Shown piece after piece: positions 55,757 through 55,774 of a stretch of 64,000 nucleotides of DNA (position 1 is its first letter; every line of letters begins with the position of its first letter). Both the position numbers and the translations under genes were made by a program. The stretch comes from Escherichia coli (GTDB lineage: Bacteria; Pseudomonadota; Gammaproteobacteria; Enterobacterales; Enterobacteriaceae), in the NCBI RefSeq assembly GCF_003018235.1, contig NZ_CP027437.1. One strand, 5' to 3'. The notes under the pieces are model-generated. The model did not search any database, was not told the DNA's origin, and saw nothing but the letters and a program-made list of their open reading frames with translations.

Positions 55757-55774
55757 TACCTACCGTTTTAAAAC
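55757..55774. promoter_or_regulatory. perfect 18-bp palindrome TACCGTTTTAAAACGGTA upstream of alpA
   Basis: Read directly; about 75 bp upstream of the alpA start and downstream of a minus-strand terminator-like hairpin. Confidence 0.45.

Follow-up and report, generated by a model that had tools for sequence, protein, structure and literature searches.

A conserved pair of 20-bp dyads upstream of alpA in a PICI-type island of Escherichia coli, a candidate tandem repressor operator

Introduction

In a 64-kb stretch of Escherichia coli DNA, analysed here as a whole and called the window, a perfect 18-bp palindrome, TACCGTTTTAAAACGGTA, lies a short distance 5' of an alpA gene, and the question raised by this locus is whether the palindrome controls alpA and, if so, what reads it and with what effect. 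In PICIs of Gram-negative bacteria AlpA acts as the master activator, and its gene is silent until a helper phage acts (PMC6092414, PMC11773190). Induction of alpA does not depend on SOS (PMC6092414) and is in part independent of AlpA itself; neither an inducer nor a repressor is known (PMC6092414, PMC11773190). A first-pass annotation, made from the letters of this DNA, took the palindrome for an operator of alpA, and hence of excision, that would recur upstream of alpA in related islands and might be bound by AlpA or by the 77-aa protein encoded next to it.

Results

The palindrome resides within an island of about 10 kb at tRNA-Pro(GGG), adjoining yejM, that extends from about 47.4 to 57.65 kb of the window. 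These limits are marked by GTTATACG/CGTATAAC, of which the window holds six copies, four near int (57467-57514) and two at the far island end (47393-47412) and none elsewhere; the copies are probably integrase arm-type sites. On the minus strand, int (57449-56190) is followed by the gene of the 77-aa protein, the hairpin T1, the dyad described below and alpA, and beyond alpA lie Icd-like, DUF4222, RepA-helicase and PerC genes and a protease/capsid fusion. A length of about 10-15 kb, a tRNA or other specific site, int, alpA, a replication gene with its ori and a mostly uniform gene direction are traits of Gram-negative PICIs; the island, which has int, alpA, a RepA-type helicase, CCTCAC iterons (52228-52424), PerC and a protease/capsid fusion at tRNA-Pro, would accordingly be classed as a PICI-type satellite. 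The features nearest to the palindrome are:

55852-56085, minus strand, 77-aa ORF between int and alpA, with three predicted helices and a basic tail ending KCGGRPKKWRR
55818-55847, minus strand, T1, a hairpin with a T6 run after it in the alpA sense, the intrinsic terminator of the 77-aa gene
55478-55684, minus strand, alpA, encoding a 68-aa Phage_AlpA (PF05930) protein (score 33.3 bits, cut-off 21)

Over 631 bp around the site the sequence does not differ from that of strain SCU-111, and the remaining island is about 98.5% identical to its counterpart there except for one segment, 54993-55398, between alpA and a YlcI/YnfO-like gene. This segment differs despite its 98.5%-identical flanks and appears to be a small mosaic replacement adjoining alpA. 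CCTCAC(TTTT) iterons, which occur in both orientations, form with a 46-bp palindrome (52330-52375) a cluster (52217-52430) just downstream of the RepA-helicase gene; this cluster is probably the replication origin of the island. The cluster gave spurious microRNA-like Rfam matches. The Rfam scan of 47-58 kb returned nothing but the tRNA and sub-threshold noise.

The palindrome exists as the first-pass annotation described it, between a terminator-like hairpin (T1) and the alpA start (55684, minus strand), except that it occupies 55761-55778, four bases to the right of the 55757-55774 given there. It is present in a single copy in the window, where it forms the core of a 42-bp imperfect dyad made of two units:

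55761-55778, the perfect palindrome TACCGTTTTAAAACGGTA, at the junction of the units O1 and O2
55749-55790, the whole imperfect dyad with its flanking A-run and T-run, 42 bp, 86% complementary
55770-55789, minus strand, O1, the alpA-distal 20-bp dyad unit, AAAACAGT-GGGT-ACCGTTTT in the alpA sense
55750-55769, minus strand, O2, the alpA-proximal 20-bp dyad unit, AAAACGGT-AGGT-ACTGTTTT in the alpA sense

Perfection as such carries little weight. First-order Markov simulations of 60 windows of 64 kb gave an expectation of 0.35 perfect 18-bp palindromes per window, with at least one in 18 of the 60, and because so many arise by chance the perfect palindrome alone is statistically not significant. 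The window in fact contains a second one, CGATATTCATGAATATCG (41643-41660), which lies within a long ORF (40081-42024) in the chromosomal part and is most likely due to chance. What lends the site significance is the conservation of its half-sites in related islands. O1 and O2 abut, each has the form AAAACNGT-N4-ACNGTTTT in the direction of alpA, and together they span 66-105 nt 5' of the alpA start codon (-105 to -66). The palindrome is thus a seam, formed where the right half of O1 meets the left half of O2, and results from the adjacency of the two sites. The AAAACNGT dyad motif has no other copy in the island or in the 64-kb window. An IMG/VR scan for AAAAACGGT-N4-ACTGTTTTT found the pattern confined to this island family apart from a few unrelated hairpins and coding sequence, blastn of the dyad against 50,697 phage records gave no meaningful match, and the literature searched contained no description of O1/O2 as cis-elements.

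A homologue of the alpA-77-aa intergenic region is present in 373 of 5,426 complete E. coli genomes (about 7%). Related loci were gathered with a pattern taken from the neighbouring conserved block, so that the collection was blind to the dyad, and further loci were added through homologues of the 77-aa protein; the resulting 61 loci fall into four clades, A to D, about 20% apart in the intergenic region. Of the 61 loci, only that of the window, which has its twin in SCU-111, contains the perfect 18-mer, and 22 contain the 16-bp core. The half-sites of O2, AAAACGGT and ACTGTTTT, are identical in all 61 loci of all four clades, whereas the N4 between them is free, with six different versions. 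Thus the expected conservation upstream of alpA was borne out for the half-sites and not for the perfect 18-mer, and what is conserved in the alpA control region is a site built of two 20-bp dyads.

The details of this conservation are those of a site with rigid units and a loose seam. Across the four clades the invariant runs are ACCGTTT/AAAACGGT, ACTGTTTTT and the block downstream of the dyad, and the spacers vary; in a region with about 20% divergence elsewhere, no bases are better conserved than the dyad half-sites. O2 stands at a constant 16 nt from the downstream block (15 nt in two loci), and the 15-nt spacer downstream of it differs between clades. N4 spacing is invariant within every unit of all 61 loci, whereas the O1-O2 junction is variable or deleted: the units repeat with a period of 20 bp, or 19 bp in clade C, and O1 is missing from three loci of two sequence backgrounds (L006; L052 and L059) as a clean one-unit deletion. 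Where present, O1 drifts (AAAAC[AGT][GAT]T ... AC[CA]GTTT[TA]; AAAAGGGT in clade D), and its changes are never compensated in the pairing partner. The pattern fits a cis-regulatory site.

Two side observations concern the same collection. In clade C islands (L079/L080, 2240-2800) T1 and the dyad are separated by an inserted segment of about 500 bp, in which TTGAGACAAC is repeated four times and the block preceding the dyad is partly duplicated. In 4 of 57 related islands alpA is frameshifted or truncated while the dyad is kept, which suggests that some island copies are decaying.

A dyad may act as DNA or, once transcribed, as RNA. The 40-nt dyad hairpin with its 5-7 U could be a second terminator or attenuator that limits alpA, in a transcript that reads through T1 from the promoter of the 77-aa gene (P77, below) or starts just upstream. 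In the alpA sense the dyad RNA reaches a folding energy of -15 to -18 kcal/mol and a z of about -3 (-18 and z = -2.7 for the 42-bp dyad), a U-run of 5-7 follows it in all clades, and its inner stem was flagged as terminator-like on the alpA strand by the scan. Read-through is plausible, as no promoter is recognisable between T1 and alpA, and an A-U to G-U change at one pair, together with one spacer column that is possibly compensated, would fit pairing in the alpA sense. Nevertheless, good folding is expected of the RNA of any DNA dyad, and in place of the G+C-rich stem of an intrinsic terminator this one has an A/U-rich stem interrupted by a 2x2 to 4x4 internal loop, with an apex of A/U only. 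The d-scores of d'Aubenton-Carafa range from -21 to +1 (-14 to -21 in clades A and B, near 0 in C and D), as against +37.6 for T1 of clade B.

The covariation points the same way. Compensated pairing and a structure kept in all members, which a terminator would show, are not convincingly seen in the dyad: in the 40-nt hairpin one spacer column at most may be compensated and four pairs depart through mismatches alone, and hairpins drawn for each unit show zero compensated pairs, O2 being invariant. Four clade-B variants (L005, L014, L026, L053) carry uncompensated mismatches in the 4-5-bp basal or inner stem, and the three single-unit loci of two backgrounds retain a hairpin of just -0.4 to -6.4 kcal/mol. 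T1, only 30 nt from the dyad, serves as an internal control and behaves in the opposite manner, since in clade B its hairpin survives a changed loop and the compensated exchange of one pair: there the structure persists while sequence and loop change, and in the dyad it is the primary sequence that persists. We therefore consider an RNA element unlikely.

By contrast, inverted-repeat half-sites at fixed spacing, conserved while spacer and flanks drift, are what an operator would present. Within the limited sequence diversity available, the pattern fits the signature of sequence-specific protein recognition better than that of a hairpin or terminator, and we infer from it that the dyad is a protein operator, with odds somewhat better than even.

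If a protein binds O1 and O2, the position of the alpA promoter bears on the sign of regulation. Within 160 nt of alpA no conserved sigma-70 promoter with the key -10 bases was found; the -10 candidates between T1 and alpA in ten representatives (TATTTN, (G/T/C)ATAAA and TACTGT) are weak and unconserved and were set aside. The only conserved promoter found is P77, which directly follows the stop codon of int. In its unusually conserved spacer the sequence AAACC(A/G)T occurs twice and may form a binding site within the promoter. A AAAACCGT half-site in the same spacer was treated as chance: it is not conserved, and most of clade A has ACCAT there. Nearer to alpA lie an invariant block and a predicted RNA helix:

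56137-56165, minus strand, P77, sigma-70-like promoter of the 77-aa gene, ATGAAA-17-TATAGT, with TATAAT as the -10 in relatives
55722-55733, minus strand, invariant block TTTACCGTATTT
55728-55736, minus strand, 5' arm UGUUUUACC of the predicted leader RNA helix
55687-55695, minus strand, 3' arm GGUAAAACA of the predicted helix, overlapping the final two bases of the Shine-Dalgarno GAGG (55694-55697)

In the RNAalifold prediction, UGUUUUACC pairs with GGUAAAACA over 9 bp, and the second arm covers part of the ribosome-binding site. A single compensated exchange, A-U to U-A, sets clade A cleanly apart from clades B and C; in clade D (L081) the helix is not kept. The helix may be a translational control element. 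If it is real, alpA transcripts start upstream of about -52, and the dyad then overlaps the core promoter or sits in the leader. This predicted geometry would suit occlusion or a roadblock and not a classical upstream activator.

Activation deserves weighing all the same, with a helper- or island-encoded activator at the dyad turning on a promoter that has no -35 element. The lack of a good sigma-70 promoter is what one typically sees where transcription depends on an activator, helper phages induce alpA in a manner independent of SOS and partly of AlpA (PMC6092414, PMC11773190), and vis, the alpA homologue of P4, is served by a late promoter that requires activation (PMC10111431). On the other hand, the start implied by the leader helix would make O2 overlap, or lie downstream of, the core promoter and not at -41 to -60, and downstream of the dyad there is no conserved -10 with the key A and T bases. 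Nor did the phage genomes yield a match to the motif in blastn, and the motif does not match TGT-N12-ACA. An activator site is quite unlikely on these grounds; granted a protein operator, repression is the likelier sign. Among known consensus sites compared by eye, those of IHF, LexA, PurR type and Ogr type do not fit; for the LexA box (CTGT-N8-ACAG), the dyad has ACAGT ... ACTGT, with the order reversed and another spacing.

AlpA itself was the obvious protein to consider. It belongs to PF05930, a DNA-binding family, the dyad lies just 5' of its gene, and the AlpA proteins of EcCICFT073 and EcCIMP1 boost their own promoters (PMC6092414, PMC11773190), so that AlpA at the dyad might regulate its own promoter and thereby excision. 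The distribution of the dyad argues otherwise. In L071, L073, L075, L077 and L085, from Salmonella and E. coli, the AlpA homologue is 65-72% identical and its helix-turn-helix almost unchanged, yet the region upstream is entirely different and has no dyad, and the dyad does not track the AlpA allele across elements. The AAAACNGT dyad was likewise not found in the att arms (between tRNA-Pro and int), the expected target of a recombination directionality factor. A scan of genome contigs with AlpA returned solely remote relatives in unrelated bacteria. One of the dyad-less control regions is that of a Salmonella island with a 65%-identical AlpA (L075/L076, 2150-2450), which has at least eight (A)AACTTCCA repeats upstream and is of a different, iteron-like kind.

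A different motif is common to the att arm and the alpA leader. The att arm has two pairs of tandem CACCGGA(nnn) repeats with a 10-bp period, at 57542-57558 and 57626-57642 (minus strand), and the leader has a third:

55703-55719, minus strand, CACCGGAACA and CGCCGGATTA, a tandem pair of 10-bp repeats immediately 5' of the alpA ribosome-binding site

These three tandem pairs compare with about 0.02 expected, our own estimate from the 47 sites found. Three copies of CACCGGA are present in the leader of L005 and L061 and in the arm of L003, and L071, which lacks the dyad, retains a block related to the leader repeats together with its AlpA. SEN1998, a factor of the AlpA family, binds att regions (PMC8844411). 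By analogy with lambda Xis and SEN1998, the CACCGGA repeats are better candidates than the dyad for AlpA sites, and they are likely binding sites of AlpA as a recombination directionality factor, or of integrase. Because the dyad is absent near AlpA homologues and from the att arms, which share CACCGGA with the leader instead, AlpA is probably not the binder, and the suggestion that it binds the palindrome now looks very doubtful. A chance palindrome, or the remnant of a 20-bp tandem duplication, would agree with the 0.35 perfect 18-mers expected per window and with a perfect form unique to this strain, but is highly improbable given an O2 that is identical in 61 of 61 loci of four clades while the adjacent spacers diverge freely.

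For a repressor operator at O1/O2 the 77-aa protein is the best candidate binder. In the five loci (L079-L083) sampled from three close homologues of the protein (64% identity or more) the dyad follows the gene every time. It is absent where the gene is missing (EcCICFT073, EcCIMP1 and L077), where it is replaced by a longer relative (L071) and where it has diverged (L085). The phyletic pattern of the dyad would thus suit the 77-aa protein better than AlpA. In its predicted structure (pLDDT 79) three helices precede a basic tail, KxGGRP(K/R)KW; Pfam and PHROG gave no match to the protein, and none of its fold matches was significant. Its domain recurs at the C-terminus of 672 representative, uncharacterised proteins, and in the four relatives examined (L071, L072, L084, L085) the gene that carries it lies just upstream of alpA. 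From these associations we put the protein forward tentatively, as a binder that is possible but less than probable; a helper-phage or other factor appears less probable still. The hairpin that follows the longer homologue in L071 has TACCGT...ACGGTA arms, which were considered and set aside as unproven.

Discussion

Based on our data we propose that O1 and O2 are a tandem repressor operator, probably not bound by AlpA, that keeps alpA silent. To this explanation as a whole we give a probability of roughly 0.4. It is favoured by the tandem half-site conservation, the fixed N4, the variable junction and the contrast with T1. The protein that occupies O2 as the primary site, with O1 as an auxiliary site two helical turns away, would be sequence-specific, probably dimeric and probably other than AlpA. 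So bound, the two sites would keep alpA, the induction switch of the island, silent, in that the protein either occludes a weak core promoter or start site or stops read-through from P77; we infer this sign from the geometry of the leader. The best candidate for the bound protein would be the 77-aa protein, and a helper phage would relieve the block.

In a bolder version, one lineage of Gram-negative PICIs has the 77-aa protein as its master repressor. Constitutive expression from P77 would supply the protein, its small helical domain and basic GRP tail would contact O1/O2 so that alpA is held off, and helper phages would inactivate it and so induce the island, following the logic of staphylococcal Stl. 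We regard this version as unlikely as it stands; if true, the protein would represent a new family of satellite regulators.

For the question of how Gram-negative PICIs sense a helper phage, O1/O2 offer an experimental handle on the induction switch. They provide a conserved 20-bp target, AAAACGGT-N4-ACTGTTTT, in the alpA control region of one island lineage, and the natural one- and two-unit variants, together with a separate candidate AlpA site, can be used in pull-downs, footprints and reporter mutagenesis. Should the site turn out to be an ordinary operator only, the gain would be modest, a defined map of cis-elements for one satellite family.

EcCICFT073, the reference Gram-negative PICI (Fillol-Salom et al. 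2018, PMC6092414), is an island of the same kind as the one described here, with a common backbone of YlcI/YnfO, Icd-like, DUF4222, replication, PerC and capsid genes. There too alpA follows int, is the induction switch and has a promoter that is silent until a helper phage acts. EcCICFT073 differs in having another int, an alpA allele that is 31% identical and no 77-aa gene. In place of the AAAACNGT dyad, the region upstream of its alpA has ACAACG 10-bp and GACACAA repeats and another hairpin (L070, 3688-3747 and 3835-3864), unrelated to the dyad; this alpA promoter has been studied experimentally, and the literature searched defines no cis-element for it. In EcCIMP1, the alpA promoter of which has also been studied experimentally (PMC11773190), a hairpin with 15-bp arms lies 5' of alpA (L086, 2440-2490, minus strand) and is likewise unrelated to the dyad.

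The AlpA of Pseudomonas aeruginosa shares the name, and a leader hairpin lies upstream of the gene that it regulates (PMC7969949, PMC9371919). However, it is a larger protein with a fold resembling that of phage 21 Q (PMC7969949, PMC9371919). We rejected the antiterminator analogy, as a large Q-like protein is set against one of 68 aa here and the ABE does not match.

In P4, vis, the homologue of alpA, is the first gene of a helper-responsive transcription unit (PMC10111431). The likeness to the present island is that a gene of the AlpA family heads a unit that responds to the helper. Vis regulates its own promoter, and the late promoter P_LL is activator-bound and depends on Ogr/delta; the site of P2 Ogr and P4 delta is TGT-N12-ACA, centred near -55. 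That pattern is absent from the dyad, which does not qualify as an Ogr/delta site, and the likely position of the dyad relative to the alpA start argues against an upstream activator site.

In lambda OR/OL and in the Stl-controlled stl-str region of SaPIs, adjacent dyads of about 17-20 bp guard the lytic or induction gene, and in such tandem repressor operators the half-site is conserved and the centre variable. O1 and O2 share all of this, adjacent dyads, conserved half-sites and a variable centre; they differ from the lambda and SaPI operators in that there is no divergent promoter pair here and the repressor is a candidate only. By analogy, O1 and O2 would work like tandem phage operators, placed where the promoters of PICI alpA and P4 vis sit.
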